Positions 4,400 to 57,493 of a stretch of DNA of 64,000 nt are shown piece by piece. This stretch comes from Minisyncoccota bacterium. Lineage in GTDB: Bacteria; Patescibacteriota; Minisyncoccia; Phycocordibacterales; JAQTLZ01. Each line of letters starts with the position of its first letter. Within the stretch, counting starts at the first letter, position 1. Below the pieces are notes generated by a model. It was not told where the DNA came from, did not search any database, and worked only from the letters and a program-made list of their open reading frames with translations. Where the stretch lies: positions 79,650 to 143,649 of the forward strand of contig JAQTLZ010000001.1 in the NCBI GenBank assembly GCA_028714635.1. Reading direction: 5' to 3'. A program made the translations under genes and the position numbers.

Positions 4400-5281
4400 A
4401 TGATGACGCTTCGAGAAGCTATCACTGACGCAATACGAAAGAAGGTTGCCATTGGGCACTTCAACATCTCCAATCTTGAAGGATTTTGGGCTGTGTTTCG
4501 GGCTGCACAAAAATTAAATGTACCTGTCATTATCGGCGCATCGGAAGGGGAGCGGGATTTTATTGGAGTGAGACAAGTCGCGGCGCTCGTCAAAAGTGTT
4601 CGAGAGGAATTCAATTACCCAATTTATCTTAATGCTGACCATACTTATTCATTTGAAAAGGTAAAAGAGGCGATTGATGCCGGCTTTGATGCTGTAATTT
4701 ACGACGGAGCAAAGCTTTCGCTCGAAGAAAATACTGCAACAACGAAGAAGTGTGTCGAGTATGCACGTCAATGCGGGCGAGACGTACTTCTCGAAGGTGA
4801 ACTCGGATTCATCGGGCAATCTTCAAAGATTCTTGATGCGGTACCTGTGGGAGTCGGGCTTTCAGGCGACGCACTTACCAAGCCAGAAGTTGCTGCACAA
4901 TTTGTAAAAGAGACCGGAATTGATCTTTTCGCACCATCGGTAGGGAATTTTCATGGAATGGTAAAGGATAGCGGAGCAGTAAAAAAGATCGATGATGCTC
5001 GCGTCTCTGAAATTTTCAAAGCAACTGGGGTTCCTCTCGTGCTTCATGGTGGTTCGGGCACTTCCGATGAGGAATTTTTGGCGGCAATAAAAAGCGGAAT
5101 TGCAATTGTTCATATTAATACTGAACTTCGTCTCGCATATCGAAAAGGTTTGGCTTTGGCGCTTCAGGAAAATCCAGATGAAATTGCTCCCTATAAATAT
5201 CTCAAAGGCGCGCTCTTGGCGATGGAAAAGGTAGTGGAGGAGAAGCTTGCCTTGTTCAACAATCTCAATACTGCGAAGTGA
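4400..5281 (+). CDS. fba: Class II fructose/tagatose-bisphosphate aldolase
   Basis: MMTLREAITDA...GHFNISNLEG...NADHTYSFE...LHGGSGTSDEEF matches the class II Zn-aldolase family. The start is trimmed to ATG 4400. It is divergent from the PfkB kinase. Confidence 0.85.
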   Translation: MMTLREAITDAIRKKVAIGHFNISNLEGFWAVFRAAQKLNVPVIIGASEGERDFIGVRQVAALVKSVREEFNYPIYLNADHTYSFEKVKEAIDAGFDAVIYDGAKLSLEENTATTKKCVEYARQCGRDVLLEGELGFIGQSSKILDAVPVGVGLSGDALTKPEVAAQFVKETGIDLFAPSVGNFHGMVKDSGAVKKIDDARVSEIFKATGVPLVLHGGSGTSDEEFLAAIKSGIAIVHINTELRLAYRKGLALALQENPDEIAPYKYLKGALLAMEKVVEEKLALFNNLNTAK

Positions 5282-8862: not shown

Positions 8863-9831
8863 ATGGATTTAACACCCTACAAAGAAAATCACAAAACAAG
8901 CTTTTTGGCTTCTGAATATGAACGTCTCGAAAAAGAAGAGGTGGGACTTTTGGCTATGATTGAAAAAGATCCATCATACAAAGAGCTTGCAGAAGAAGAT
9001 TTGAAAAGCTTGAGGGAACAAAAGGAAAACCTTTTGAAGCAGATGAATGAAATCGTTGAGGGAGAAAAAGTTGAGGAGGAATTTCCGAATGAGGTTGTGT
9101 TGGAAGTGCGTGCGGGAGCCGGGGGAGACGAGGCTTCTCTTTTTGCCGAGGAATTGGCGAATATGTATAAAAAATATGCTGAATCGAAAGGTTGGGTCTT
9201 TGTTCTTCTCGATGAATCCAGAACTGCACTTGGGGGCTATAAGGAAGCGACGTTTGAAATTCGCGGGAAGGAAGTCTACAAAACCATGCGATTTGAGACG
9301 GGAGTGCACCGAGTTCAGCGAGTTCCTGCAACAGAGAAAATGGGACGGGTGCATACTTCCACAGCTTCTGTCGCCGTGCTCCCGATTCGCAAGAAATCGA
9401 AAGTAATTATAAATCCAACCGATATCGAGATGGAATTTTCGAAGTCCGGAGGGAAGGGGGGACAGAACGTGAATAAAGTGGAGACTGCAGTGCGACTCGT
9501 CCACAAGCCGACAGGGCTTGAGGTGAAATGCACCAACGAGCGAAGTCAGGGCAGAAACCGGGAAAAAGCAATGTCTATGCTCATTGCCAAGCTCGAGATG
9601 CTTCAAGAAGAACAAGATGCAAAAAAGTACTCAGCAAACCGCAAAAATCAGATCGGTACCGCAGATCGTTCAGAAAAAATCCGCACCTACAATTACCCGC
9701 AAAATCGCATTACTGATCATCGTCTGAAGAAGTCGTGGTATAGTCTCGAGAAGATCATGACAGGCGAATTTGAGCCAATTGCGGAGGCTATGAATAAGGG
9801 TGAGATTGGAAATGAAGATGATGAGGGATAA
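8863..9831 (+). CDS. prfA: Peptide chain release factor 1
   Basis: GGQ motif ([11 protein letters not shown]). PAT tripeptide in VPATEK (RF1 has PxT; RF2 has SPF). [13 protein letters not shown]. Confidence 0.9.
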
Positions 9832-9869
9832 TTTGCCTTTTCATATCTAATCTGCTAGACTTTTCATCC

Positions 9870-10580
9870 ATGACAGATACCAAAAACAGTGCGGTTATTG
9901 AGGGCCTTTTTAAAGCGGGCGCTCATTTTGCCTATTCAAAATCACGCCGACATCCTTCAGTAAAATCTTATATTTTCGGGGCTAAAAACAAGGTTGAAAT
10001 CTTTGATTTGGAGAAAACATCTGACCTTTTGGAAAAGGCGAAGATGTTCGTGAAAACTCTCGGTGCGGAAGGAAAACAGATCCTTTTTGTTGGAGGCAAA
10101 CCAGAATCACGAGACACAATGAAAAACGGCGCTTTGGCTATCAATATGCCTTACGTTGCTGGACGATGGATTGGAGGAACTCTTACCAACTTTGGACAAA
10201 TCCGAAGCCGAATCGACAAGATGCTCACTCTCATGGACCAAAGAGAGAAAGGAGAGCTTTCAAAATACACAAAGAAGGAGCGACTTCTCATTGACCGAGA
10301 GATCACGAAACTCAACCTCTTTTTCTCCGGACTCGTTCTCTTGAAAGGAATGCCACAGGCCGTATTTGTGATTGACTCAAGAAAAGAAAAGATCGCGGTA
10401 GATGAAGCAAAGAAAATGAACATTCCCGTTATCGCTCTTCTCGGTTCTGACTGTGATATTTCTGAAGTAGATCATGCTATCGTCGGTAATGACGCTTCGC
10501 TCGCCAGTATTCGATTTTTCGTAGACCAAATTGTGAAGGCCTACCAGGAAGGAAAGGGCAGCGTTGAGCGCAAAGCGTAA
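9870..10580 (+). CDS. rpsB: Ribosomal protein uS2
   Basis: LFKAGAHFAYSKSRRHPSV...ILFVGGK...NMPYVAGRWIGGTLTNF...IPVIALLGSDCD is diagnostic of S2. Confidence 0.9.
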   Translation: MTDTKNSAVIEGLFKAGAHFAYSKSRRHPSVKSYIFGAKNKVEIFDLEKTSDLLEKAKMFVKTLGAEGKQILFVGGKPESRDTMKNGALAINMPYVAGRWIGGTLTNFGQIRSRIDKMLTLMDQREKGELSKYTKKERLLIDREITKLNLFFSGLVLLKGMPQAVFVIDSRKEKIAVDEAKKMNIPVIALLGSDCDISEVDHAIVGNDASLASIRFFVDQIVKAYQEGKGSVERKA

Positions 10581-11266: not shown

Positions 11267-11653
11267 ATGACATTTGCACTCTCATCATTCATCGTGTCGT
11301 TTGTGCTCATCGTGGTGCTTATCGGGCACAAGCTTTATGAAATGTCTCGGAGCGAGACCGCATTCTCGAAAATTCGAGGAAAGATGGATACGATGGTGTC
11401 TGAAAACATTTCAGTGGTAAAAAGCCACTCTCATATGTTTGAAAAGGGAACGGTGAGAAAATTTTTCAAGATCTTTTTTAGCGGAGTGGCTGAAGCAGCT
11501 CTCCACATAAGACAAAGTCTCATCCGAAAATGGAATGGTTTTTTCCATTCACTTAAGACTGGCGCAGTCAAAAAAAGCGACGGAGAAGTTTCCATTTTTC
11601 TTAAGGATATTTCTCGGGATAAAAAAACTGGCGGAGGAGAGAAAAAAATGTAG
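11267..11653 (+). CDS. Hypothetical small membrane protein
   Basis: 128-aa ORF with an N-terminal TM helix. Supported by ORF length only. Confidence 0.3.
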   Translation: MTFALSSFIVSFVLIVVLIGHKLYEMSRSETAFSKIRGKMDTMVSENISVVKSHSHMFEKGTVRKFFKIFFSGVAEAALHIRQSLIRKWNGFFHSLKTGAVKKSDGEVSIFLKDISRDKKTGGGEKKM

Positions 11654-11695
11654 AATGGAGAAGGTTTTCACGTTGCCTTAGTGAAGTTGGTGGGG

Positions 11696-11723
11696 CTGAA
11701 ACGAAAACTGCTTTTCGTTTCAG
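11696..11723. promoter_or_regulatory. Perfect 12-bp stem hairpin (CTGAAACGAAAA-CTGC-TTTTCGTTTCAG)
   Basis: Read directly from the sequence. No flanking U-tract. It lies between the small ORF and tRNA-Thr. Confidence 0.35.
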
Positions 11724-11800
11724 GAGGTTCGTAATCGAAATTGCCGTTGCTGAATGAAATGAAGCAGACAATAACGAACTGTTTTGTAAAAATTATAGAT

Positions 11801-11873
11801 GCCGGCATAGCTCAGTTGGTAGAGCGCCACTTTTGTAAAGTGGATGTCCGGGGTTCGAACCCTCGTGCCGGCT
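11801..11873 (+). tRNA. tRNA-Thr (anticodon UGU)
   Basis: I folded the cloverleaf by hand. Acceptor GCCGGCA/TGCCGGC. D-arm GCTC-AGTTGGTA-GAGC. Anticodon stem CCACT/AGTGG with loop TTTGTAA (anticodon TGT). T-arm CGGGG-TTCGAAC-CCTCG. Discriminator T. CCA is not encoded. Confidence 0.8.
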
Positions 11874-11917
11874 CCCTGTATACCAAATGTTTGGTTACTT
11901 GTGGTACACTGTAAAGT

Positions 11918-12334
11918 ATGAAAAGATGCAAAGAATGTGGTGTGTCGCTTAAAACCAGATTTCAATTAAAATATTGCTCTAATAAGTGTCAGTCCAATCA
12001 TCAATATAAGGAATACATTCAGGGCTGGAAATCTGGGACTTTTGATGGGAGTAGAGGAATCACAACCAAAGCTCTATCTCAACACCTGAAGCGTTACCTC
12101 ATTGAAAAGTGCGGCGAGTTTTGTTCGAAGTGTGGATGGAGGGATATTCATCCTATTACTGGTAGAGTCCCGCTAGAAGTTGATCATGAGGATGGAAATG
12201 CAGAGAATAATAGCGAAAAAAATTTAAAACTTTTGTGTCCCAATTGTCATTCTCTCACCCCGGGTTTCAGAAATTTGAACAAGGGAAAAGGAAGAATTTG
12301 GCGAAAGAATAAATACTTGAAGACTAACTCATAG
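11918..12334 (+). CDS. Small HNH endonuclease with an N-terminal Cys4 zinc finger
   Basis: CKECGV...CSNKCQ zinc ribbon. HNH core EVDHEDGN...NLKLLCPNCH. 138 aa. It starts 44 bp after tRNA-Thr and ends 3 nt before the next gene. Confidence 0.75.
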   Translation: MKRCKECGVSLKTRFQLKYCSNKCQSNHQYKEYIQGWKSGTFDGSRGITTKALSQHLKRYLIEKCGEFCSKCGWRDIHPITGRVPLEVDHEDGNAENNSEKNLKLLCPNCHSLTPGFRNLNKGKGRIWRKNKYLKTNS

Positions 12335-12337
12335 GAC

Positions 12338-13879
12338 ATGGAATACATTCGGACACCCTATTACACAGCGGGGCAGGCAAAAGATCTTACAGGAAAAGAT
12401 TTTCGTATTTATCGCTTCTTTGAAATTCTTCCCGGATTTTTGGCGTGGGCTACGCTCTTTGGCGCGCTTTTGCTTTCTTACCTCGCGCCTTTTTATGCGG
12501 CGCTTTTTATCATTGTCTTCAATTTATATTGGGTTTTGAAAAGCGCCTATCTCTCGCTTCACCTCTACCAAAATTGGCGCCATATCAGAAAATCTTTGGG
12601 AATGGATTGGGAGGAAATGCTTGCGCCTCTTAAATATACTCGTATTGTCCATCTTGTTATTTTGCCATTCTACAAAGAATCATATGAAATTGTAGAAACA
12701 AGTATTAAATCCCTTCTCTCTGCGCGTGGGAATAAAAAGAAAATGGCGGTCGTTCTCGCTGTTGAGGCGCGAGCAGGCGAGAGCGCATTCCAAACGGCAG
12801 AAAAAATCAGGGACTTGTATGGCAGAGAATTTGGCTACTTTCTAATCACCATTCACCCAAGCGGTATTTCAGGAGAGATGGATGGGAAGGGTTCGAACAT
12901 TGCTTACGCAGCGGAAGATGCGCGAAAGAAGATTCTCGACGCGAATGAAATTCTGTACGAGGATGTTCTTGTTTCTGCATTCGACATCGATACTATCGCG
13001 TATCCGGATTATTTCCTCTGTCTTATGTGGCATTTCCTGACGAGCGAAGATAGGCTTCATGCTTCGTATCAGCCAGTTCCTTTTTATAATAATAATATGT
13101 GGGATGCACCGGCACTGTCGCGAATCGTCGCTACGTCGGGAAGTTTCTGGCAGATGATCCAGCAGGAGCGTCCGGAGCGTCTTACCACTTTTTCTTCGCA
13201 TTCCATTCCATTTCCGACGTTGCAAGAAATTGGCTATTGGCAGAAAAATATTGTTTCCGAAGATTCCCGTATTTTTTGGAATGCATTTCTTGCACATGAT
13301 GGAAATTACAAAGCTGTACCGATTTCTTACCCGCTCTCGATGGATGCCAATCTCGCGCCCTCTTTCTGGCAGACCATGAAGAATGTCTATAAACAACAGC
13401 GCCGATGGAGCTGGGGCGTAGAAAATCTTCCTTATATTCTTATGGGCTTTGTAAAAAATCCTCGGATTTCTCTGGGGAGAAAATTGCGCATCACATTCAT
13501 CGAACTTGAACGGGCATGGTCTCTTGCGACAAACCCGATCCTTCTTTTTCTTTTCACTTGGACGCCAATTCTTCTCGGAGGAAGAGTTTTCAATAGTACT
13601 TTGCTTTCATATAATTTGCCGGTTGTCTCAAGGAATCTGACATTTCTCGGCATCCTCGGAATTTTGCTCTCCGCTATCGTTTCTATTTCGCTTCTTCCTC
13701 CGCCTCCAAAAGGGAGCTCAAAAAGAGGAACGCTCACCATGTTTGCCCAGTGGATATTCGTGCCCGCAACACTTCTCGTGTTTGGCTCGATCCCGGCTCT
13801 TGAGGCGCAGACCCGTCTCATGCTCTCCGGAAAATTCCGTCTTGGCTATTGGGTGACGCCAAAACACCGGAAATCTTAA
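12338..13879 (+). CDS. Processive family-2 membrane glycosyltransferase (cellulose/chitin synthase-like)
   Basis: QQRRWSWG is the QxxRW motif of processive beta-glycosyltransferases. D,D motifs (VSAFDID). TM helices at the N- and C-termini. Confidence 0.7.
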   Translation: MEYIRTPYYTAGQAKDLTGKDFRIYRFFEILPGFLAWATLFGALLLSYLAPFYAALFIIVFNLYWVLKSAYLSLHLYQNWRHIRKSLGMDWEEMLAPLKYTRIVHLVILPFYKESYEIVETSIKSLLSARGNKKKMAVVLAVEARAGESAFQTAEKIRDLYGREFGYFLITIHPSGISGEMDGKGSNIAYAAEDARKKILDANEILYEDVLVSAFDIDTIAYPDYFLCLMWHFLTSEDRLHASYQPVPFYNNNMWDAPALSRIVATSGSFWQMIQQERPERLTTFSSHSIPFPTLQEIGYWQKNIVSEDSRIFWNAFLAHDGNYKAVPISYPLSMDANLAPSFWQTMKNVYKQQRRWSWGVENLPYILMGFVKNPRISLGRKLRITFIELERAWSLATNPILLFLFTWTPILLGGRVFNSTLLSYNLPVVSRNLTFLGILGILLSAIVSISLLPPPPKGSSKRGTLTMFAQWIFVPATLLVFGSIPALEAQTRLMLSGKFRLGYWVTPKHRKS

Positions 13880-13909
13880 GAAATGCCGTCTCTGTAAAAG
13901 AAGCCGATT

Positions 13910-14800
13910 TTGTGTATAATATCCTCCTATATGCCGCACATGTCTCTTCGCAGAAGAAGGCTCTATTTCTATTCTTTTTGCCTGATTTTTTTCGTGCTCA
14001 TCCCTGTTCTTGTTTTTTACGCGAATGGGTATAGGATCACCAAAGATTGGCAAGTCGCTGAAACGGGCGGTATTTATGTCTATGCTTCCGAAAGCAATGC
14101 AGACGTCTCTTTGAACGGAGTCCTCTTGCAGAAAAGTGGGATTTTTCAGAGGGGAACTTTTCTCGACGGTCTTACAGAAGGGAAGTATGAGATTTCAGTA
14201 TCAAAGGCAGATTTTTCTTCTTGGAAAAAAGATATTGAAGTGAAAGAAGGATTTGTTACGGAAGGACATCCGTTTCTTATTCCTTTGAATATTGAGCCCG
14301 TTCTGATCCCCGAATTTTCAACTTCCACAGCTACTAGCACAAAAATAAAAAATCCTGATTATGCCGATGCTCTGCTTCTTTTCCAAAAATCGCTGGTAAA
14401 GAAAACTCTCGCTACAACTACGTTGTCTTACGGAGAGGACGCTCTTCGAAATGGGAATCTTGTGGTTTTTGAGACAGGAACTCAATTACAGGCTGTCTGG
14501 CTTGGAGATACCAATTCGATGCCCTACTTTTTCTGTCATGCAGTTTTGTGCGGGACAGATACAAGCGCGACTTCCACTGTCTATACGAATGTTGTGCCGA
14601 AATCCCATCTTGAATTTTTGCCACGGCGTACCGATGTGGTGTTACTCGAAACAAAAGAGGGTATAGAGGCAGTTGAGCTTGATACGACATTTCCTCAAAA
14701 TGCAGTTTTGGTATATCCGACGAAGACAGCGGACTTTAGAGTTTCAAATGGCGTCATCTATTTAAAAGACGGTGCCAATATATCGAAGATAAATTTGTAA
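13910..14800 (+). CDS. Membrane-anchored PEGA-domain protein
   Basis: N-terminal TM helix. GIYVYASESNADVSLNGVLLQKSG...GKYEISVSKADFSSWKKDIEV is a PEGA-domain pattern. The start may lie at ATG 13931 or 13940. Confidence 0.5.
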   Translation: MCIISSYMPHMSLRRRRLYFYSFCLIFFVLIPVLVFYANGYRITKDWQVAETGGIYVYASESNADVSLNGVLLQKSGIFQRGTFLDGLTEGKYEISVSKADFSSWKKDIEVKEGFVTEGHPFLIPLNIEPVLIPEFSTSTATSTKIKNPDYADALLLFQKSLVKKTLATTTLSYGEDALRNGNLVVFETGTQLQAVWLGDTNSMPYFFCHAVLCGTDTSATSTVYTNVVPKSHLEFLPRRTDVVLLETKEGIEAVELDTTFPQNAVLVYPTKTADFRVSNGVIYLKDGANISKINL

Positions 14801-14812
14801 TATACTATAAGC

Positions 14813-15565
14813 GTGGAGACAGAAAGTAAAAAAGGATATTTGCACCCAATTACACAGACTATTCGGCAGGCGGTTTCGATTTGGAATGATCTTGGATTTG
14901 AAGTGGCGGAAGGGCCGGAAATTGAAACCGAACATTACAATTTCGACGCTTTGAATATTCCCGCGAATCATCCAGCACGGGATCTTTGGGATACGTTTTG
15001 GCTGAAACCTCTTTCAGCTCGTAAACTCTTGCGAACTCACACTTCTCCTGTCCAGATCCGCTATATGGAGAAGCACAAAAAGGATTTGCCAATCCGCATT
15101 ATTGTTCCAGGAAAAACTTTCCGTCATGAGGCAACGGATGCCACCCATGAAGCTCAATTTTTCCAAATGGAAGGGCTTGCCGTGGGCGAGGGAATTACGC
15201 TCGCGAATATGAAATCAGTGCTCATCACTTTTTTCAAAAAGCTCTATGGTCCCGATGCGGATGTTCGATTTCGCCCGAGCTTTTTCCCTTTTACCGAGCC
15301 AAGCGTTGAGATTGATGTCTCTTGTTTTAAGTGTGCTGGAAAAGATTCTGCCTGTCCGCTTTGCAAAGGCACCGGCTGGATAGAAGTTATGGGCGGAGGA
15401 ATGGTTAATCCAAAAGTGCTCGAAGGTGTAGGAATTGACCACAAAAAATACACAGGTTTCGCCTTCGGTTTCGGACTGGACCGCCTCGTGATGCTCAAAT
15501 ATGGCGTAGATGATATTCGTTCGCTTTATTCAGGAGATTTACGATTGTGGCAGGTTAAAAAATAA
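14813..15565 (+). CDS. pheS: Phenylalanine--tRNA ligase alpha subunit (catalytic core only, no N-terminal extension)
   Basis: HPITQTIRQ...FDALNIPANHPARD...FRHEATDATHEAQFFQMEG...FGFGLDRLVML are class II aaRS motifs 1-3. GTG start 13 nt after the upstream stop. Confidence 0.85.
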   Translation: METESKKGYLHPITQTIRQAVSIWNDLGFEVAEGPEIETEHYNFDALNIPANHPARDLWDTFWLKPLSARKLLRTHTSPVQIRYMEKHKKDLPIRIIVPGKTFRHEATDATHEAQFFQMEGLAVGEGITLANMKSVLITFFKKLYGPDADVRFRPSFFPFTEPSVEIDVSCFKCAGKDSACPLCKGTGWIEVMGGGMVNPKVLEGVGIDHKKYTGFAFGFGLDRLVMLKYGVDDIRSLYSGDLRLWQVKK

Positions 15566-15568
15566 ATT

Positions 15569-17467
15569 ATGCTCATCTCTTACAAATGGCTCACGATGTA
15601 TTTCGACAAACCGATTCCTTCACCGGAGGAGGTTGCCAAGCTTTTTACTTTTCATGCTTTTGAGGTGGAAGGGTTGGAAAAGAAAGGCGATAATGCAACT
15701 CTGGATGTAAAAATTTTGCCAGACCGAGCGCATTATTGTCTTTCGCATCGAGGCGTTGCCGGAGAGCTTTCTGCAATAACCGGAATTCCACTCAAGAAAA
15801 TCGAGCCGAAAGTTTTTCCTATTGCCAAAGTTCGTGATTTGAAAATAAAAATAGATGAGCCGAAACTTTGCCGACGATATATCGGGCGCGTTATCGAAGA
15901 TGTGGTTGTTACTGATTCGCCGGATTGGCTTTCTGCCGACTTAGCGGTTGTCGGTCAGCGACCAATAAATGTTGTTGTTGATAATGCCAACGGAGCGATG
16001 TTCGATGTCGGTCAGCCACTTCACGCTTTCGATGCGGATAAAGTGGTGGGGGGAATTACAGTACGTCTCGCAAAAAAAGGGGAAAAAATCACTACACTTG
16101 ATGACAAAGATATTACTCTCGATGCTGAAACGCTTGTGATTGCTGACGACGAGGGACCAATTGCTATTGCAGGGGTCAAAGGCGGAAAGCGGGCGGAAGT
16201 GACGAAAGAGACCAAAAACCTCATTCTCGAATCTGCCAATTTTGATCCGGTAAATATTCGCAAGACTTCTACTCGGCTTGGAATCAAGACTGATGCATCA
16301 AAGCGTTATGAAAATGAGATAACTCCGGAGCTGGCAGCAAGCGGAATGGAAATGCTTACCTTTTTCCTTCAATACTGTATTAAAAGTCCTTTCAAAATCG
16401 GATCCCTTGTGGATGTTTACCCACATCCTGCAAAGCAAACTGTGATTGATTTTGACCCAAGTTTGGCAAGCGGGCTTCTTGGGGTTGAAATTAGCGAAGA
16501 AAAGGTTATTGAACTTTTGAATCGCCTTGAAATTAAAATAGAAAAGAAAGGCAGACATCTTTCACTCACGATTCCCTTTGTTCGTCTTGATTTAGAGATG
16601 TCTGAAGATATTGTGGAGGAAATTGGACGGCTATACGGCTATGAAAATATCAAGCCCGTGCCGATGGAGAAAATGCAGAAATCTCCCACGATCAATAAGA
16701 ATGTCTATTATCAAAACAAATTCCGAGACGTGCTTACAAATCTGGGCTTTACCGAAGTCTACACATATGCGCTTCAGGAAAGTGGGGAAGTAGAGCTTGA
16801 AAACCCATTGGCATCGGATAAAAGCTTTTTGCGCAAAAACCTTTCTGCGCTTCAAAATAGCCTCGATATGAACGCGCTCAATGCTCCGCTTCTCGGGCTC
16901 ACGGATGTACGAATATTTGAAATTGGAAAAGTATTCGATAAAGGCGCTGAAGAACATACAGCTTTGGGTATTGGTTTTTGGACTGGCACAAAGAAAAAAC
17001 AAAAAGAAATGATTGAAGCCGAGTTCGACAAGATCGCAGATGCTTTCAGAAAGGAGATTGGAGATGCGCCAGAGGCGCACAATCTTACGGCGAATGTTAT
17101 GGAAGCGAATCTTGATGCGTGTATTGAAAAATTACCCGACCCAAAGAAATATGATTTTGCCAAAGCGACAGAAGTCATTTACAAAAAACCATCAGCCTTT
17201 CCATTTATTGTCCGTGACGTAGCACTTTTCGTCCCATCTGCCACCAAAGAGGGGGATGTGCAAAATATAATCAAACAATCAGCGGGGGATTTGGTAGTCC
17301 GAGGTCCGGAACTTTTCGATGTATTCGAAAAAGGAGACAAGAAATCTCTCGCATTCCGGCTTGTTTTCCAATCATATGAAAAGACACTCACAGACAGCGA
17401 GGCGAATGGATTTATGGAGAAGGTCTATGGAGTTTTAGAGAAAGAGGGTTTCGAATTGAGAAAATAA
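15569..17467 (+). CDS. pheT: Phenylalanine--tRNA ligase beta subunit (short, 632 aa)
   Basis: MLISYKWLTMYFD is the standard PheT N-terminus. B3/B4 and B5-like regions are present. It starts 4 nt after pheS. Confidence 0.85.
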   Translation: MLISYKWLTMYFDKPIPSPEEVAKLFTFHAFEVEGLEKKGDNATLDVKILPDRAHYCLSHRGVAGELSAITGIPLKKIEPKVFPIAKVRDLKIKIDEPKLCRRYIGRVIEDVVVTDSPDWLSADLAVVGQRPINVVVDNANGAMFDVGQPLHAFDADKVVGGITVRLAKKGEKITTLDDKDITLDAETLVIADDEGPIAIAGVKGGKRAEVTKETKNLILESANFDPVNIRKTSTRLGIKTDASKRYENEITPELAASGMEMLTFFLQYCIKSPFKIGSLVDVYPHPAKQTVIDFDPSLASGLLGVEISEEKVIELLNRLEIKIEKKGRHLSLTIPFVRLDLEMSEDIVEEIGRLYGYENIKPVPMEKMQKSPTINKNVYYQNKFRDVLTNLGFTEVYTYALQESGEVELENPLASDKSFLRKNLSALQNSLDMNALNAPLLGLTDVRIFEIGKVFDKGAEEHTALGIGFWTGTKKKQKEMIEAEFDKIADAFRKEIGDAPEAHNLTANVMEANLDACIEKLPDPKKYDFAKATEVIYKKPSAFPFIVRDVALFVPSATKEGDVQNIIKQSAGDLVVRGPELFDVFEKGDKKSLAFRLVFQSYEKTLTDSEANGFMEKVYGVLEKEGFELRK

Positions 17468-17899
17468 AACTGTTCTGTATCGCTGTCGGTGGCGAAACAG
17501 AACAGAATGTGTCACGGAAGGTTGAAGTAGATCGCTACATGTGTTGCGAGGTAGCATCCGGGATTTTTCACCCGCGGAGGCCTTTTTCTCCCGCAAGTTA
17601 GAACATCGGCGATACTTCTTGAACACGCGGACAGGCTACTGCTTCCTGCACCTATCGCACCTCGCGGTTTTGATAGGAGTAGAGAGAGGTTCTCTTGCCG
17701 TTTGTCACATGCCAGTTGCATGACTTTCTCCCTTCAAAATGTACTTGGTTATCCCTCCTTATCTCCGCATCTTTTTATACTATATGCATTTGTATAAAAA
17801 ACCCGCAAATTGGTTTTGTGCATAAGCCTGTGGAGAAATTGTGAGTTTGTTGGGGATTAGATGTTTACGCAATATTTGTAAAAATAATCAATATATTTT

Positions 17900-17942
17900 T
17901 GAGAAAATAAAAGATGCCGTTGAGTTAAAAGCCCTCAACGGC
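17900..17942 (-). terminator. Intrinsic terminator for the small minus-strand gene
   Basis: On the minus strand, GCCGTTGAG-GGCTTTTAA-CTCAACGGC (9-bp perfect stem) is followed by ATCTTTTATTTTCTC. Confidence 0.6.
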
Positions 17943-17967
17943 ACCTGTGTTTGTCCGCGCATTCTGT

Positions 17968-18309
17968 TTATAAGCGCTCGAGCCAGTATGAGTTGGTTTT
18001 CGCATTACCAACTGCATAACACTTGGACTTTACCACATACTGCGCGCCGACTCGCAGCGTCGGACCCGGGGTGTTCACAAACACCCGAGTGCCATCCGCC
18101 GCTTCGAAGACAGATGTGTCTCCGATTTGCGCCAGGAGCGTATGCGGCTCGCCCTGGAGCTTGCTCATGTGGGCCGGTTTGCCTTCGGCATTGAGAACGA
18201 TCAGAGCAATCGCTATCGGGACACAGAGCAGCAGGCCGACGAACGCGAGTATGTGTACGCCTGACAGGGCGACAAAGATTCTTTTCGTTCTCGGAACTTT
18301 TATTCTCAT
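17968..18309 (-). CDS. Hypothetical small membrane-anchored protein (GC-rich orphan with strong SD)
   Basis: 113 aa: MRIKVPRTKRIFVALSGVHILAFVGLLLCVPIAIALIV... is an N-terminal TM anchor followed by a beta-rich domain. AGGAGGAGTGAAGTC lies before the ATG. GC is about 58% against ~42% for the neighbours. It has its own terminator. Confidence 0.55.
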   Translation of the reverse strand: MRIKVPRTKRIFVALSGVHILAFVGLLLCVPIAIALIVLNAEGKPAHMSKLQGEPHTLLAQIGDTSVFEAADGTRVFVNTPGPTLRVGAQYVVKSKCYAVGNAKTNSYWLERL

Positions 18310-18508
18310 GACTTCACTCCTCCTGTATTGCCTCACGCGGGCAAGCTCACACTTGGGGTCGAGCCCCTTCCAGAAGCCTTGGTGACAGGCTTTATACATG
18401 AAGAACTCTATCAAATTCATATCATTTTATTTTTAAAAAGTCAAATTTTTGATACCAGAAACTATCCACTAAAACCGAGAAAAAGCCCTTTCATTTTAAG
18501 GCTAAATT

Positions 18509-18517
18509 TGCTATAAT
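18509..18517 (+). promoter_or_regulatory. Extended -10 promoter (TGcTATAAT) for gyrB
   Basis: TGCTATAAT lies about 45 nt upstream of the gyrB ATG. There is no good -35. Confidence 0.4.
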
Positions 18518-18562
18518 AAGAGTACCAAAAGGGTGCTTTTTTGTTTGTATTTTCGCTCATAA

Positions 18563-20638
18563 ATGCCTAAAGAAGAAGTCAAAACAAAAGGTTCATATAG
18601 CGCTCAAGACATCACTGTTCTTGAGGGTCTTGAACCTGTCCGAAAGCGTCCCGGAATGTATATTGGAACGACTGGACCGGACGGATTGCACCACCTCATC
18701 ACTGAAATTTTCGATAACTCCCGCGACGAGGCGATGGGTGGTTTTGCTAACGATATTGAAATCGTTTTGCTTCCCGGAAATAAAGTGAGAGTGACGGACA
18801 ACGGCCGAGGTATTCCAGTTGATGTTCATAAATCTACAAAAGTTTCCGCGCTTGAAACGATTATGACCACGCTTCATGCCGGAGGAAAATTCGGCGGGGA
18901 AGGGTACAAAGTCTCCGGTGGGTTGCACGGAGTGGGTGCGTCTGTGGTGAATGCACTTTCTATTTACACCCAAGTCGTTGTGCATCGAGATGGCGGAAAG
19001 TACATGCAGGAGTACAAGCAAGGAAAGAAAAAGGCGGCGGTCAAGAAAATTGGTTCATCGAAACTCCACGGAACGATTGTGACCTTCGAGCCAGACATCG
19101 AGATTTTTAAGGAGATAAAATTTGAATGGAACAAGATCGTTTCGCACATGCGCCAGCAGGCTTATTTGGTGAAGGGATTGAAAATTGCTGTCATTGATGC
19201 GCGAGAATCAAAAGATCTCGAGAAAGTGGATTTGACTGATGTCTTTTATTTCCGAGAGCTTGGACGAGACCTTCCTTCATTCACTTTCTATTTTGAAGGA
19301 GGACTCATGTCGCTCATTAAGTTCTATAACCAAACTCAAAAGCCGGTACATAAAAATATTTTCTATGTTGAGAAAGAGGTGGATAATGTGGCGGTAGAAG
19401 TCGCGCTTCAATACGTGGATGATATTAGTTCTCGCGTACTTGCTTTCGCAAACAACATTTACAACTCCGAAGGCGGTACGCATATCACAGGATTCAAAAC
19501 GTCTCTTACCCGAACGCTCAACAGTTATTCTAATAAAAATGGAGGGGGGAAAAGCGAAGATAATTTTACCGGAGATGATGTGCTGGAAGGACTGACTGCC
19601 GTTGTCTCTGTAAAGATCCGCGAAATCCAATTTGAAGGCCAGACGAAAGCTAAACTCGGAACCGTTGAAGCCCAGTCAGCAGTAAGCACTGTTTTCGGCG
19701 AGGCATTTAGCGCATTTCTGGAAGAGCATCCTGATGATGGCCGGGCTATCATAAGCAAGGCTGTGCTCGCTATGAAGGCTCGAAAAGCCGCTAAGGCTGC
19801 GAAAGACAGCGTGCTTCGAAAAGGTGCGCTCGAGGGTATGACGTTGCCGGGAAAGCTTGCAGACTGTCAGAGTAAAGACGCTTCTGAATCCGAAGTGTTC
19901 ATAGTAGAGGGAGATTCTGCAGGAGGTACCGCAAAGACTGGCCGTGATAGGCGAGTGCAGGCAGTGTTGCCTTTGCGAGGAAAAATCTTGAACATTGAAC
20001 GAGCTCGGCTTGATAAAATGCTTGCGTCAGAGCAGATCAAGAACTTGGTGGTTGCTGTCGGTACTGCTATCGGCGACACATTCGATATCAGTAAACTTCG
20101 CTATCACAAAATCATTATTGCGACCGATGCCGACGTTGACGGAGCACACATCCGTACTTTGCTCTTAACTTTGTTCTACCGGTATTTCCGTCCGCTCATT
20201 GATGGAGGATTTATTTATATTGCCCAGCCGCCGCTTTATAAAATAAAGAGAGGGAAAGAAATTCATTACGCCTATTCGGATGAGGATAAAGTAAAGATTG
20301 TCGGCAAAAACGCTTCAGCGGAAATAGTTGAAGAGAGTTCCGAATCTTTGCCGGAAGGTGAAGAAAGCGAAGAAGCAGAAGATACAAAAGCGGGCGCAGG
20401 CAAGGAATCAAAAAAAGTTGCTAAAATTGCAATCCAGCGTTACAAAGGTCTCGGAGAAATGAATGCGGAAGAACTTTGGGAGACGACGATGGACCCCGCA
20501 AGACGCATTTTGAAACAAGTAAAGATAGACGATGCACAAGAGGCTGACAAAGTATTCGATATCCTCATGGGGACAGATGTGCCGGCACGAAAATCTTTTA
20601 TACAGTCTAACGCAAAATTGGCAAACATAGATATCTAA
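18563..20638 (+). CDS. gyrB: DNA gyrase subunit B
   Basis: YSAQDITVLEGLEPVRKRPGMYIGTTG...HHL..EI.DNS.DEA (GHKL ATPase). Toprim EGDSAGG. The acidic C-terminal GyrB tail is present. Confidence 0.9.
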   Translation: MPKEEVKTKGSYSAQDITVLEGLEPVRKRPGMYIGTTGPDGLHHLITEIFDNSRDEAMGGFANDIEIVLLPGNKVRVTDNGRGIPVDVHKSTKVSALETIMTTLHAGGKFGGEGYKVSGGLHGVGASVVNALSIYTQVVVHRDGGKYMQEYKQGKKKAAVKKIGSSKLHGTIVTFEPDIEIFKEIKFEWNKIVSHMRQQAYLVKGLKIAVIDARESKDLEKVDLTDVFYFRELGRDLPSFTFYFEGGLMSLIKFYNQTQKPVHKNIFYVEKEVDNVAVEVALQYVDDISSRVLAFANNIYNSEGGTHITGFKTSLTRTLNSYSNKNGGGKSEDNFTGDDVLEGLTAVVSVKIREIQFEGQTKAKLGTVEAQSAVSTVFGEAFSAFLEEHPDDGRAIISKAVLAMKARKAAKAAKDSVLRKGALEGMTLPGKLADCQSKDASESEVFIVEGDSAGGTAKTGRDRRVQAVLPLRGKILNIERARLDKMLASEQIKNLVVAVGTAIGDTFDISKLRYHKIIIATDADVDGAHIRTLLLTLFYRYFRPLIDGGFIYIAQPPLYKIKRGKEIHYAYSDEDKVKIVGKNASAEIVEESSESLPEGEESEEAEDTKAGAGKESKKVAKIAIQRYKGLGEMNAEELWETTMDPARRILKQVKIDDAQEADKVFDILMGTDVPARKSFIQSNAKLANIDI

Positions 20639-20677: not shown

Positions 20678-21214
20678 CTATTTCTTCTTCATGAGAAGTT
20701 GATATTCCTTTTCGGTGAGGATATCTTTGCTCCTTGCCCGATCGAGAAATACAATTCCATTCAAATGGTCGAGCTCGTGTTGAAAAATTCTCGCGACAAA
20801 ATTATGCGAAAGTTTTTTCTTCTCTACTTTTCCTTTTCTATCTGTGTATTCGACTTCGACTGAAATCGAGCGGGGGACAAGAGCGCGGATTCCCGGCACA
20901 CTCAAGCATCCTTCCCAATCTTTCTTCATCTTGTGCGATTTCTTGAGGATTCGGGGATTGATCATCGCAATCGGCTTCATCTTTGGAGCTTTTGGATATC
21001 GAGAGTTTGGGTGCGACCAAATAATAAAAATTCGGAGCGGTTCATAAACTTGCGGTGCAGCAATACCAACTCCGTTCGAATCCTTACAGGTGGCGATCAT
21101 ATTTTCGATAAGTTCCTGAATTTCAGGATCGTGAACATTTTTGACAGCCTTAGCTTTTTGCCGGATTACCGCATTTCCAAGTTGAGCAACCTGGAGTATT
21201 TTGGATTTTCTCAT
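20678..21214 (-). CDS. def: Peptide deformylase
   Basis: GVGIAAPQ, EGCLSVPG and HELDHL are the three PDF motifs. Confidence 0.9.
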   Translation of the reverse strand: MRKSKILQVAQLGNAVIRQKAKAVKNVHDPEIQELIENMIATCKDSNGVGIAAPQVYEPLRIFIIWSHPNSRYPKAPKMKPIAMINPRILKKSHKMKKDWEGCLSVPGIRALVPRSISVEVEYTDRKGKVEKKKLSHNFVARIFQHELDHLNGIVFLDRARSKDILTEKEYQLLMKKK

Positions 21215-26950: not shown

Positions 26951-27265
26951 TTAGGGCAATGAACTTATGGCGATGATATCGCAGTGGTCTTTGCGCGGAG
27001 TCGCTCGGATTCCAGTGTGCTGGCTAAGCACCACGTAAAGTCCTTCTTCTCCAAGTTCCACGCTTATTCCTCGCGGTCCGACGACTATGCAATGATGAGC
27101 AAGTTCCAGGAGCACCTGGTCTACAAAGGCCCTGCACATCGCCTGTACACTGGCATCGTTACTCGCGAACTCTTCGCATGTAAACAAGAGCGGCTTTTTG
27201 TTCTCCAACCTTCCGTAGATCGCTCGCGCTACGGCGTCGGGACGAGAAAGATTCTCTGAAGCCAT
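26951..27265 (-). CDS. Hypothetical protein (GC-rich orphan with strong SD)
   Basis: 104 aa with no recognisable motif. GGAGGAACGTATC lies before the ATG. About 52% GC. Confidence 0.45.
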   Translation of the reverse strand: MASENLSRPDAVARAIYGRLENKKPLLFTCEEFASNDASVQAMCRAFVDQVLLELAHHCIVVGPRGISVELGEEGLYVVLSQHTGIRATPRKDHCDIIAISSLP

Positions 27266-32882: not shown

Positions 32883-33347
32883 CTATATTCGAAATCTGGG
32901 GAACTTATCGGTGGGGAGGGGAAGGCTACAAGAGACTTCTCCTCCGATCATATCCTTTCCGAGTTCCTGCGCAATTTCTTTCAAGGATTGATTGGTCGCA
33001 TCATCTTGATCAAGAAAGAGAAGATATGCCCAGAGGCCTCGGCAGATTTTTTCTTCTGCATGTCTTTCGAAAATGAAGATGATGTCGTCCTCTTCCGATC
33101 TCTCTTTTAGGCAAAACCAGAACCTCTTTCCTTCGAGCTTGCCTATTACTACCCAAGCGCGGGCACGGCGCCCCTTTTCAGTCTTAAATGCTCCGGCCAA
33201 TTCCCCTGTCTTATGATCCAGGTTGATTCTCGCATTCCATTTTCCTCCCAATCGATTGGGAGGGCTAACATCAAAAGTTCCGCTCAAAAACACCTGTCCT
33301 TTTGCGTCCTTTCGCAGATTGACCCACGGCGCCGTTCTCTCTTCCAT
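32883..33347 (-). CDS. Hypothetical protein (GC-rich, strong SD), upstream partner of the XRE regulator
   Basis: 154 aa with no motif. GGGAGGAATCGCAC lies before the ATG. Confidence 0.45.
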   Translation of the reverse strand: MEERTAPWVNLRKDAKGQVFLSGTFDVSPPNRLGGKWNARINLDHKTGELAGAFKTEKGRRARAWVVIGKLEGKRFWFCLKERSEEDDIIFIFERHAEEKICRGLWAYLLFLDQDDATNQSLKEIAQELGKDMIGGEVSCSLPLPTDKFPRFRI

Positions 33348-33442: not shown

Positions 33443-34069
33443 ATGGTCGTCAAGTATAGTATTGGAATTGATGAGGTGGGACGGGGGCCTTTGGCGGGGC
33501 CGGTAACTTTGTGCGCAGTTATGGTGGAGAAGGGGGCAGCGAAAAATTTCTCGGAAATTTTTCGCGGGGTCCGGGATTCAAAACAGCTTACCGAAAAGGT
33601 GCGTGAAAAGTGGTCAAAAATCGCAAAATCAGAAAAAGAAAAAGGTGCCATCCAATTTTCGATTTCATCAGTTCAAAATTTTACGATAGACAAAATTGGA
33701 CTCGCGCGCGCCGTACGGCGCGCGCTCAAAAACTGCTTGAAAAAACTCGAAGTAATTCCGAGCGAATGCGAAATTTTTTTAGACGGCTCGCTTTACGCTC
33801 CCAAAGAATTTAAAAATCAGAAAACAATTATCGGAGGCGATTCGAAAGTAAAAATCATTTCTCTTGCATCTGTTATCGCTAAAGTTCATCGCGATAGAAA
33901 AATGGCTCGACTTTCAAAAAAATATCCCGGTTACGGCTTTGAAATCCACAAAGGCTATGGCACCAAACTTCACTATAAAAGTCTTAAAAAATGGGGCGTT
34001 TCGGAGATTCATCGCAAGAGTTTTCTCCACTCCTTACCCACAGCATCCCCACAAGTTATCCACAGCTAA
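33443..34069 (+). CDS. rnhB: Ribonuclease HII
   Basis: IGIDEVGRGPLAGPV is the RNase HII DEDD N-terminal signature. Confidence 0.9.
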   Translation: MVVKYSIGIDEVGRGPLAGPVTLCAVMVEKGAAKNFSEIFRGVRDSKQLTEKVREKWSKIAKSEKEKGAIQFSISSVQNFTIDKIGLARAVRRALKNCLKKLEVIPSECEIFLDGSLYAPKEFKNQKTIIGGDSKVKIISLASVIAKVHRDRKMARLSKKYPGYGFEIHKGYGTKLHYKSLKKWGVSEIHRKSFLHSLPTASPQVIHS

Positions 34070-34158
34070 CTGTGGAAAAGAGAGTAAAATAGATATCAGC
34101 AACATTGTGCAGTTAAATTGGAGTTTTTCCATTCACACTCTCGAAGGAGGGAACGGCC

Positions 34159-34374
34159 ATGACAAGCTCGATTCTCAATCCACAAGTGGGTGATGTGGAT
34201 CCAAAAGTAGGGAAATCAGATTGGGATTTCGGTGGAACATCGGAACGGCCTGCAGCTGTTGAGCTGCTTCAGATTCTTGGAAGGATGAGTAGCGTTGATC
34301 GCTCCGAATTCTTCTCAAAGAGGGCTGCAAAGCTGTTTCGTCATCGTTTCGATGTCCCGTCCGCTTGCAAATAG
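34159..34374 (+). CDS. Hypothetical small protein (strong SD)
   Basis: 71 aa. AAGGAGGGAACGGCC lies before the ATG. A CCCUCC...GGGGGG stem followed by a U7 run lies downstream (34395-34430). Confidence 0.4.
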   Translation: MTSSILNPQVGDVDPKVGKSDWDFGGTSERPAAVELLQILGRMSSVDRSEFFSKRAAKLFRHRFDVPSACK

Positions 34375-34471
34375 CTCCATTCAACTCCGTTCGCATTGTG
34401 CTCCCTCCTTTCTCACCGGGGGGACACTTTTTTTGAATTTTTCCGCTCTTGCGGATTTTTTGGTTTTACTC

Positions 34472-37108: not shown

Positions 37109-37534
37109 TCAAAGCGGTTGAAAATATGCCGCGTTGACGTAAGAGGAATTCTCGCCGGAGTCGCGGAAATCCTTCCCGTCTTTGTTTGCGATGAGGAAAC
37201 ATTGCTCTCTTCCTTTTCCAGTCGCAAATAAGACTTTGTACGGAGGCGGTCCAATCTCGGCGAGAATCGCCGACTGCACAGGCTCGACTGTCCTCTCCAT
37301 TATTCTTGAGATGGAAGCGAGCTCCGGGCTCCAATCCACCAACCTGACGACAACTTCTCCGGGCGATTCCTCTTCCGGCGGTACAATTCGAAGAAGAGGT
37401 TGCTCGTGTTTCTGACTTTGAGCTTTTTGAGTTAAGCCGATGCCGACGGCTTTCCTCTGACCTTTTCCGCGAACGCGCTTTTCTTTAGCCACTCCTTTTT
37501 TAGAGGAGCAGCTCCGATCCGTGACTGTACTCAT
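37109..37534 (-). CDS. Hypothetical basic protein (GC-rich) preceded by a G10 tract
   Basis: 141 aa with a Lys/Arg-rich N-terminus. On the minus strand the start region reads GGGGGGGGGGAACAATG. About 52% GC. Confidence 0.45.
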   Translation of the reverse strand: MSTVTDRSCSSKKGVAKEKRVRGKGQRKAVGIGLTQKAQSQKHEQPLLRIVPPEEESPGEVVVRLVDWSPELASISRIMERTVEPVQSAILAEIGPPPYKVLFATGKGREQCFLIANKDGKDFRDSGENSSYVNAAYFQPL

Positions 37535-37538: not shown

Positions 37539-37548
37539 CCCCCCCCCC
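37539..37548. repeat. Homopolymeric C10 (G10 on the coding strand) tract 4 nt upstream of a start codon
   Basis: Counted directly: ten consecutive C at 37539-37548. Confidence 0.9.
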
Positions 37549-37666
37549 TTGTAACCCAAGAACTCCAATTTCCCGTCTATCATTAGATACTTTTTTCTGT
37601 TTTTGTCAATCTACTCTCGGTATAACTTGTTTTGAAACACAGTAAAAAAATGCTACATTTATAGCC

Positions 37667-44238: not shown

Positions 44239-44685
44239 ATGCAGATTCGAGTGTACCTTAAGGCGGGCGTTGCACAGAATGAAAAGTTCCGAGACGTTGC
44301 GCCAGGGAGTATTTATTGGGGAGAGAAAAACTTTCCGCTTTCCCGGGATAAATTTGGCAGGCTTTTTTTCACCATGGAATCAGGTGAGTCGATTCCCGAG
44401 GATTTTTTCGAATCGGTGGAGTTTTTCAGCCTCTCTGCCTCTTGGCTGAAAGTGGCTCATCGTTGCACAGGAGAGTACCAAGATGTTCCTGATGAGGTCG
44501 TCCATGAAGAAGGACGAGCCCGCGGTTTTCTGGATCTTCGTCCAAGTGGTAGTGGTCCAGAGTATTACCTCCGGCTTTCTACCCTCAACGGCGGCGACGA
44601 GAATGATCTCGAAAATTTGTATTGGCGAATCCGTGAAGGGAACATCGCTCCGGTTACCAGTTGGGAGGAGAGACAAAAAAAGTAG
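44239..44685 (+). CDS. Hypothetical protein (GC-rich, SD AAGGAG)
   Basis: 148 aa. AAAGGAGTAGTAGC lies before the ATG. It sits behind its own consensus promoter and a structured ~95-nt leader. Confidence 0.45.
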   Translation: MQIRVYLKAGVAQNEKFRDVAPGSIYWGEKNFPLSRDKFGRLFFTMESGESIPEDFFESVEFFSLSASWLKVAHRCTGEYQDVPDEVVHEEGRARGFLDLRPSGSGPEYYLRLSTLNGGDENDLENLYWRIREGNIAPVTSWEERQKK

Positions 44686-50177: not shown

Positions 50178-50441
50178 ATGAACGAATTGGAACAAGTCAA
50201 AAAGGATATACAGGAGATAAAGGAAAGGAACACTCGAGTTGAAATGGACAAGGCTTGGGAAACAAGTCTTTTTCGTAAGATTCTCATTGCCGTTTTGACG
50301 TACATTGTCATTGTTCTTTTCTTCACTTTTGCTCATTTACCAAATCCGTTTGTGAATGCTATTGTCCCCACTCTTGGATTTCTTCTTTCTACGCTTTCAA
50401 TTTCTCTCTTTAAACGTCTTTGGATGAGGGGAAATAAATAA
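50178..50441 (+). CDS. Hypothetical small 2-TM membrane protein
   Basis: 87 aa. Amphipathic N-terminus followed by two hydrophobic helices. Confidence 0.35.
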   Translation: MNELEQVKKDIQEIKERNTRVEMDKAWETSLFRKILIAVLTYIVIVLFFTFAHLPNPFVNAIVPTLGFLLSTLSISLFKRLWMRGNK

Positions 50442-56790: not shown

Positions 56791-56815
56791 ACCTCAATTC
56801 TGTTATACTTTTACT

Positions 56816-57316: not shown

Positions 57317-57346
57317 ATTTAGCACTAAAGCGACCTACAACTTTCC

Positions 57347-57472: not shown

Positions 57473-57493
57473 GAAAAGTTCGTGGGGAGCGGC

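Follow-up and report, generated by a model that had tools for sequence, protein, structure and literature searches.

The question raised by this locus is what fills the gap between pheT and gyrB in a Minisyncoccota bacterium, where the window (a 64,000-nucleotide stretch of contig JAQTLZ010000001.1, assembly GCA_028714635.1, whose own positions are used throughout) is otherwise tightly packed. The gap measures 1095 bp (17468-18562), whereas other gaps in the window are mostly below 200 bp (exceptions: 703, 660, 348 and 343 bp), bearing out the sequence-only reading that had called this spacer anomalously long. The same reading had placed in it a single gene and an ORF-free 5' part (ORF: open reading frame); the gene, on the minus strand and encoding 113 amino acids (aa), is upheld, but a second minus-strand unit fills the 17468-17900 stretch. 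The spacer is probably a variable slot for accessory small genes, which here holds two self-contained minus-strand units, one adjoining pheT (unit A) and one carrying the 113-aa gene (unit B). The locus is an ordinary variable spot, a small islet flanked by core genes, and no novel type of system. Established for this reading are the anatomy of the spacer, the homology of the 113-aa protein and the pattern of presence and absence among relatives.

Databases hold only a handful of relatives, among which the order pheS-pheT-spacer-gyrB is kept in L001 to L004. With identity of pheT to the window taken as the database-search figure or as the best segment of a full-length BLASTP or tblastn comparison, these are L001 (88% aa identity; spacer of 565 bp), L002 (79%; 889 bp), L003 (77%; 561 bp) and L004 (65%; 1297 bp). 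The segment missing from L001, the closest relative, is the whole 113-aa cassette including its promoter (Table 1). The L002 slot holds an unrelated 70-aa ORF with two transmembrane (TM) segments and its own UUCG-loop terminator, behind a -35 block (AAAAAGTCAAATTTTT) identical to that of unit B, which thus stands there ahead of a different gene. L003 carries a two-TM ORF of ~76 aa, L004 a Cys-rich ORF of ~81-97 aa, and the contig of P0007 (protein record only) a 106-aa minus-strand gene. The slot genes of the relatives all lie on the minus strand, are led by a Shine-Dalgarno sequence (SD) where the sequence is readable, and end in a hairpin and T-run abutting the pheT stop; in L002, L003 and L004 this is each time a different hairpin and T-run, in the same place and orientation as the terminator of unit A. 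The window and its relatives often differ by gene-sized indels. Within the window, direct repeats lie on either side of each unit: a perfect 14-nt repeat encloses unit A, and ATTTTTGA (17895), which overlaps its second copy, recurs at 18445 (repeat family D1). Both units would be gained, lost or replaced between close relatives through recombination at such short repeats, with the gyrB promoter staying fixed.

On the strength of its homologues, the 113-aa ORF is a real gene of a rare, unnamed small-protein family, in agreement with its earlier designation as the credible gene of the spacer. A phmmer scan of 1.84 billion representatives recovered three small distant homologues, 33-38% identical to the 113-aa protein: P0123 (93 aa; E = 7e-10), P0126 (called at 74 aa, but 112 aa if started from a GTG further upstream; E = 4e-5) and P0127 (96 aa; E = 9e-4). 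The four-member alignment contains 16 invariant columns, and the family shares an N-terminal hydrophobic helix (present also in the long form of P0126), G-x-P-A-H where the domain begins, P-x-L-x-(V/I)-G-x-x-Y as its core and F/Y-W-L-E/K at the C-terminus. An AlphaFold2 model built on this alignment (pLDDT 80) predicts a helix at residues 7-41 and five strands; comparison of the model with the PDB by Foldseek gave no significant match (best E = 0.2, mostly OB-like barrels). Three very large repeat proteins in the phmmer output (P0122, P0124 and P0125) were judged to be matches driven by low complexity or repeats, and not homologues. A word-indexed search with the 113-aa protein returned only itself, and Pfam-A, NCBIfam and PADLOC gave nothing above cut-off for this protein, for the 69-aa ORF of unit A, or for the slot ORFs of L002, L003 and L004.

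The 117- and 120-aa ORFs that overlap the gene on the plus strand exist but are spurious, as had been proposed, because homologues and base composition support the minus frame only (GC by codon position.59/.42/.63, the only frame in which the second position is lowest). Its private SD also stands, with AGGAGGAG placed 8 nt before the ATG; the GC content is lower than the ~58% first given, at 54.7%, a peak of 59% being reached only in a 200-nt window. One homologue lies between Ku and mraZ (locus L006) and another adjoins jag-yidC-rnpA (L007), so the family has no fixed genomic context. The L006 homologue is likewise GC-rich (55% in a 44% GC contig) and SD-led. It had been suggested that a relative with the same gene and spacer at ordinary composition would undo the case for an unusual locus: relatives do keep a long spacer, but its content differs, and the L006 homologue is GC-rich against an AT-richer host contig. 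Downstream of the L006 homologue and upstream of mraZ (4508-4585), phased GTGGG repeats of the kind usual at MraZ-binding sites come after a perfect TTATCCACA box. A phage or plasmid origin of the 113-aa gene is unsupported: tblastn against phages and plasmids gave no match, and a profile-derived scan of viral contigs gave none.

The signals around the 113-aa gene form a complete transcription unit as read from sequence. The TTGACT-17-TATGAA promoter earlier proposed for it was located at 18444->18416, with its -35 block kept in L002; a consensus scan missed it because the last base of the -10 is A. The proposed terminator with a 9-bp stem is likewise present (GCCGTTGAG/CTCAACGGC at 17916-17924 and 17934-17942, then UCUUUUAUUUUCUC on the minus strand), and escaped the terminator scan because its 9-nt loop exceeds the 8-nt limit. 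Both this hairpin (17915-17943) and that of unit A (17470-17505) are directly trailed on the minus strand by UUUUAUUUUCUC, as in intrinsic terminators. Between promoter and SD, the leader core (18337-18394, minus strand) shares 83% of its 58 nt with the DNA immediately ahead of the L006 homologue (blastn E = 9e-10), while the two proteins are only 36% identical. The shared part holds a hairpin (AAGCCT-GTCACCA-AGGCTT, 18374-18392) and the block GTGAGCTTG, and most differences between the two copies compared fall in the loops of small predicted hairpins. The element is unique within the window, absent from L007 and without an Rfam match, and its folding energy is unexceptional (z = -0.3 to +0.8). 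A gapped-pattern scan for further copies gave five chance matches in metagenomes, in contigs of 60-65% GC with no homologous gene downstream, and zero in viral sequence. It could be an RNA element or a repressor operator.

In the proposed mechanism, unit B (about 17901-18444) would be transcribed from TTGACT-17-TATGAA through a ~100-nt leader and translated from its strong SD into a protein with a signal-anchor helix and a beta-barrel domain presumably facing outward, which would be inserted into or exported across the membrane and act at the cell surface. The 58-nt leader most likely controls expression of the gene, whether as an RNA hairpin element or as an operator. What is inferred within the slot reading is that the units are expressed and the 69-codon ORF of unit A translated, together with how the 113-aa protein sits in the membrane, its surface function and what its leader does. 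Type I toxin-antitoxin systems pair a hydrophobic toxin of at most ~60 aa with an overlapping or adjacent antisense RNA; the 113-aa protein is too long for such a toxin and has a predicted folded ectodomain, and the 69-aa ORF is basic and not hydrophobic. A consensus promoter scan found no antisense promoter in the spacer, where an antisense RNA may nonetheless exist.

Unit A has the same layout. The sequence-only reading had noticed a 9-bp-stem hairpin immediately after the pheT stop; the hairpin is present at 17470-17505 but is not a good pheT terminator, and since its U-run lies on the minus strand it ends the minus-strand unit. The adjoining stretch (17468-17900), taken to be without an ORF, contains an SD-led ORF of 69 codons on the minus strand, whose stop lies 6 nt ahead of the terminator and whose 5' untranslated region (UTR) would be ~50 nt. 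The block comprising the promoter and the DnaA-box-like repeats upstream of it aligns to L002 far better than shuffled sequences do (z = 9.3), while the transcribed body does not (z = 0.6; local alignment in both cases). Homology of the body with L002 was therefore rejected, the alignment being no better than shuffles and tblastx empty. The unit is not present in L003 and L004, and a pattern built on it found zero matches in viral contigs. Unit A spans 17470-17898 and is bracketed by the 14-bp duplication of the pheT 3' end, a pattern that would fit insertion at the pheT terminus. An insertion found in L004 (described below) marks the 3' end of pheT as an insertion site in this clade, which favours the slot reading.

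Comparison with L001 bears on whether unit A is translated. Over 17468-17838 the two genomes differ at 21 of 371 nt (94.3% identity) without indels, and the 69-codon ORF is intact in L001 at 87% aa identity, again without indels. Its 16 substitutions are spread 4/3/9 over the codon positions (one-sided binomial p ~0.05). Six codons change synonymously; of the nine replacements, six are conservative (three I/V exchanges and one each of D/E, A/G and A/V). Third positions differ by 13%, near the 11% at four-fold sites of the rpsB tract, and both the terminator (no difference in 39 nt) and the 5' UTR (one difference) lie far below them. As far as this one comparison reaches, the substitution pattern is that expected of a translated ORF, and the ORF shares the signature of the SD-led, GC-richer small ORFs of the window. 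Translation of the 69-codon ORF is, on balance, the preferred reading of unit A.

Table 1. Features of the pheT-gyrB spacer and its borders (window positions; dots, no strand assigned).
Feature	Position	Strand	Details and basis
pheT (phenylalanine-tRNA ligase beta subunit), left border	15569-17467	+	632-aa ORF; 100% match to NCBI pheT annotation with Pfam B3_4, B5, FDX-ACB
14-nt direct repeat, copy 1, TTGAGAAAATAAAA	17456-17469	.	last pheT codons, stop and 2 more nt; repeat family D3
Unit A intrinsic terminator (predicted)	17458-17505	-	outer stem 17470-17478/17497-17505, inner stem 17480-17484/17491-17495, U-run UUUUAUUUUCUC; folds, inverted repeat I2
69-codon ORF, or body of ~300-nt RNA	17512-17721	-	SD GGGAG 17732->17728, 6 nt before ATG; ORF list
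Unit A promoter (predicted)	17779-17808	-	TTGCGG (17808->17803), 18 nt, TATAGT (17784->17779); sequence; kept in L001; TTGCAG-18-TATAGT in L002
Four phased TGTG repeats, DnaA-box-like	17817, 17829, 17840, 17851 (17817-17859)	+	11-12 nt spacing; TGTGCATAA, TGTGGAGAA, TGTGAGTTT, TGGGGATTA
113-aa cassette, 570 bp	17885-18454	.	absent from closest relative L001 (~29 nt instead); blastn block boundaries, alignment
14-nt direct repeat, copy 2, TTGAGAAAATAAAA	17899-17912	.	on minus strand, U-run of the 113-aa-gene terminator; repeat family D3
Unit B intrinsic terminator (predicted)	17901-17943	-	9-10-bp stem (17915-17943), 9-nt loop, U-run; sequence and inverted repeat I1
113-aa protein	17968-18309	-	N-terminal signal-anchor helix and ~70-aa small beta-barrel domain (predicted); homologues P0123, P0126, P0127; AlphaFold2 model
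5' leader of 113-aa gene (predicted)	18310-18412	-	SD AGGAGGAG included; core 18337-18394
Unit B promoter (predicted)	18416-18444	-	TTGACT (18444->18439), 17 nt, TATGAA (18421->18416); TG upstream of -10; sequence
gyrB control region	18462-18562	+	CTATCCAC box 18462-18469; extended -10 TGCTATAAT 18511-18519; hairpin and U-run 18518-18550
gyrB, right border	18563-20638	+	691-aa ORF; L003 and L004 orthologues with gyrase B Pfam domains

A small high-GC gene with its own SD is not peculiar to this spot: the signature is common to nine of the 60 ORFs in the window. Only 3 of 35 core genes have an SD, against 17% upstream of random ATGs, and many core genes carry a TAnnnT box 6-12 nt before the start codon and look leaderless in sequence. 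The strict-SD ORFs are the 69-codon ORF (17512-17721), the 113-aa gene (17968-18309) and those at 26951-27265, 32883-33347, 34175-34396, 44239-44685, 50441-50977, 51888-52817 and 61818-62156. They are shorter (median 113 versus 247 aa) and GC-richer (49.7% versus 44.0%, Mann-Whitney p = 5e-4; GC3.52 versus.43, p = 1e-4); both spacer units belong to the class, most members of which are without a known family. Elsewhere in the window, a run of ten G at 37541-37550 (minus strand) lies in the SD region (ACAAGGGGGGGGGGAACAATG) of a 141-aa, GC-rich and family-less ORF (37109-37534), and is a candidate slipped-strand phase-variation tract.

Several points weigh against a slot with two expressed small genes. 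Its promoters and transcription start sites are predictions from the sequence. No more than four members make up the 113-aa family, the putative label of a surface protein derives from the TM helix, no fold match being significant, and the leader comparison comprises n = 2 sequences whose folding energy is unremarkable. The 69-codon ORF is flat in GC by codon position (.54/.54/.47), has no homologue among 5.8 billion proteins and no protein family match, and was left uncalled in the annotations of both the window and the L001 metagenome-assembled genome (MAG); its AlphaFold2 model is a single-sequence one and uninformative (pLDDT 60). The excess of substitutions at position 3 reaches only p ~0.05, and one pair of synonymous substitutions would also compensate for each other in a predicted hairpin. 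Nor can the 94% identity of unit A to L001 be read as selection, given how identity varies along these two sequences.

In the likeliest alternative, unit A is an untranslated RNA of ~300 nt. This is possible, though the less probable outcome; that the unit (17470-17775, minus strand) would be a structured RNA gene of a new, clade-restricted class, with the 69-codon ORF incidental, is a tentative suggestion of similar standing. Besides having its own promoter and terminator and an ORF that was never called, the unit is 52% GC in a 44% GC genome, and its minus strand is more stably folded than shuffled sequence (z = -2.6), and more so than the plus strand, for which z = -1.45. A single difference from L001 falls in the first ~120 transcribed nt, against 17 in the 149 nt that follow; next to the compensatory pair there are five one-sided compatible changes, and the weak nucleotide similarity to L002 around the start does not match in reading frame. 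However, the SD, the intact ORF and the position-3 bias suit a coding gene, and no Rfam family matches even at E <= 10. The body has no detectable homology in L002 and is absent from L003 and L004, which leaves too few sequences for covariation analysis. Recombination may itself account for the tract of high identity to L001: nucleotide identity between the window and L001 is a mosaic, ranging from 62% to 98% per 100-200 nt (9724-10555 in rpsB, 12349-12770, 15924-16223 and 19524-19823), and identity at four-fold sites is 89% in rpsB and 82% in a single tract of pheT, as against 59% in pheT overall and 65% in gyrB. Purifying selection was accordingly dropped as an explanation of the 94% identity, since with such a mosaic a recent recombination tract explains it equally well. 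All three MAGs of the comparison come from one sampling project, and the mosaic suggests that lineages co-occurring there have recently recombined.

A known RNA in the 5' part, which had been proposed as an explanation of the noncoding stretch (an Rfam family, transfer-messenger RNA (tmRNA), RNase P or the signal recognition particle (SRP) RNA), was not found by Rfam or ARAGORN. At E <= 10, Rfam gave only three chance matches in 17300-18700 (11-14 bits against a 60-bit threshold); at gathering score it gave tRNA-Thr alone in the whole window and six loci, and ARAGORN found no tmRNA. Hand inspection of the 5' part for RNase P CR-I/CR-V and SRP domain IV motifs gave superficial resemblances only.

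The island may instead be a scar left by a mobile element that once integrated at the 3' end of pheT, its small ORFs being decaying and functionless cargo, its direct repeats remnants of attachment (att) sites, and its phased repeats former arm-type or iteron sites. This is unlikely, although the perfect 14-bp duplication of the pheT terminus around unit A, the short repeats around unit B and a composition and SD usage that look foreign all accord with it. A parallel lies in L004 (7804-8682), where the site holds an unmistakable insertion of 783 bp that has copied the final ~96 nt of pheT; together with the 14-bp repeat around unit A, it indicates that insertion at the pheT terminus is recurrent in the clade. 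The spacer of the window, however, has no integrase, transposase or terminal inverted repeats in or beside it and no match in phage, plasmid or viral collections, while its 113-aa ORF is intact and shares motifs with distant homologues, and both promoters and both terminators are intact. The L004 insertion itself carries a 186-aa PaaX_M-like gene between 44-nt palindromic repeats (TAGTCTAAC...GTTAGACTA), with the old coding end of the pheT C-terminus left as a relic.

The third alternative, which makes the spacer or part of it the chromosomal replication origin or a cluster of boxes that titrates DnaA, is highly unlikely. It draws on the phased TGTG-type boxes, of which L001 and L002 have four each with <=2 mismatches and the same position and phasing, one in L002 being a perfect TGTGGATAA; on a CTATCCAC-type box upstream of the gyrB promoter that is kept in all five genomes; and on the adjoining gyrB and the AT-rich stretches flanking the boxes, of which the one at 17860-17913 follows them. 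However, GC skew shows no inflection, being positive on both sides and monotonic when cumulated across 4-26 kb, and genes on either side of the spacer are co-oriented. The absence of a skew sign change and of a switch in gene orientation led to an oriC here being ruled unlikely. No dnaA or dnaN was found among 40 window ORFs scanned against Pfam, a scan that left out ~18 ORFs (several of them above 300 aa: 37667-39934, 39977-41551, 42032-44056, 45381-46436, 46519-49677, 54511-56790 and 58215-61469). The array is absent from L003 and L004, and in the window it has no perfect box, two boxes with one mismatch and one or two with two mismatches; about one third of shuffles (106/300) likewise reach three clustered boxes with <=2 mismatches. 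In Bacillus subtilis, DnaA-box clusters outside oriC, including one at sda, regulate neighbouring genes (PMC3245932). By analogy, DnaA-dependent regulation of the unit A promoter and of gyrB is possible. Elsewhere, the 3' end of rnhB (34023-34079) is densely set with DnaA-box-like 9-mers (TTACCCACA, ATCCCCACA, a perfect TTATCCACA and an inverted TGTGGAAAA), of which the last two form a palindrome, CCACAGCTAACTGTGG, so that this may be no more than a terminator hairpin.

Within the spacer, conservation across all five genomes is confined to the gyrB control region, with its CTATCCAC-type box, an extended -10 (TGNTATAAT) and a leader hairpin with a U-run. It lies at 8403-8509 in L001 (~92% identity), ~8690-8790 in L002 (84%), ~6710-6790 in L003 and ~9113-9191 in L004 (75-77% in these two), and a pattern scan of metagenomes gave zero further copies of the promoter. 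The leader hairpin, which was terminator-like in the scan, apparently starts near the inferred 5' end of the transcript and could be a 5' stabiliser or an attenuator.

That the island is an assembly artefact or chimeric join, with the 113-codon ORF a chance ORF in GC-rich DNA, is very unlikely: the segment is compositionally distinct and its ORFs overlap on both strands, but a second NCBI record (JAQTSW010000019.1, L013) is 100% identical to window 11569-19004, whole spacer included, both outer junctions recur in L001 and L002, and the 113-aa protein has homologues (best E as above) with aligned motifs.

The window as a whole is 44% GC and dense in housekeeping genes (L25, RF, S2, EF-Ts, pheS, pheT, gyrB, def, sortase, thrS, dnaE and rnhB, among others), the spacer itself being neighboured by pheS, pheT, gyrB, def and a CARDB protein. 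Its two other longest gaps, at 56791-57493 (703 bp) and 62157-62816 (660 bp), contain neither a large ORF nor anything that Rfam recognises at gathering score. An HNH-endonuclease-like ORF after tRNA-Thr (11876-12337) is absent from L001 and L002, the two relatives compared there, and def (20678-21214) is absent from L001, L002 and L003. Extra genes stand between pheS and pheT in L001 (5387-5989, a 200-aa ORF of unknown function), L002 (4601-5977, a fumarase/aspartase-type lyase) and L004 (4848-5999, mTERF-like).

For annotation, the locus shows that a doubtful-looking small ORFan of 113 aa can prove to be a real gene with relatives, and that a stretch taken as empty holds a second, predicted transcription unit overlooked by gene callers. 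Streamlined Paceibacteria genomes would still turn over tiny surface-protein genes at fixed spots beside essential genes, and the accessory genes have a strong SD and a base composition unlike those of the core genes of the host. If this held genome-wide, the two-class pattern would be a simple flag for recently acquired genes in uncultured episymbionts. No major question of the field is altered by the locus, and the two leads worth modest follow-up are conservation of the leader and the split of the genes into SD-led and SD-less ones. A bolder combination of the two is a long shot: that the 58-nt leader is a new cis-regulatory element of a mobile, SD-led and GC-rich family of small proteins exported by Patescibacteria, in which core genes lack an SD and look leaderless, and that the pheT-gyrB spacer serves at the same time as a platform dedicated to exchange, its resident promoters (among them one controlled by DnaA boxes) capturing interchangeable small genes without a dedicated recombinase gene close by.

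The locus can be set against several known systems. Dual-function small RNAs (sRNAs), or those bearing small ORFs, are exemplified by SgrS/SgrT and SR1/SR1P. Unit A resembles these as a predicted autonomous transcript of ~300 nt with a terminator and a short SD-led ORF, in which conservation of coding and of RNA is inseparable; it is unlike them in having no evidence of a base-pairing target and no homologues beyond one close relative. The non-oriC DnaA-box clusters of B. subtilis (PMC3245932) are likewise boxes of one orientation (TTATCCACA-like) upstream of the promoter of a very small gene, near gyrB in the present case, whereas the boxes here are degenerate (1-2 mismatches), known from sequence, and without statistical support within the window.

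Among systems of gene exchange, integrative elements that target gene 3' ends, as at tRNA and tmRNA genes, share with the locus the duplication of the pheT terminus (14 bp around unit A; ~96 nt with the 783-bp insertion of L004), but the spacer has no integrase and no recognisable att arms, and unit A is only 429 bp long. Integron gene cassettes are likewise small, swappable single-gene units in one orientation behind conserved promoter blocks; the spacer units differ in that each has its own terminator and unit B its own leader, no intI lies among the neighbours, and no attC-like imperfect palindromes bound the units. From strain-variable islets of accessory ORFans the locus differs in its tiny scale (0.4-0.6 kb per unit), in having no mobility gene, and in the retention of promoter blocks while the gene behind them changes, as between the window and L002. 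As in those islets, conserved flanks (pheT and the gyrB promoter) enclose a content that is different in every relative, the genes are small, family-less and compositionally atypical, and short direct repeats lie at the borders of the indels.

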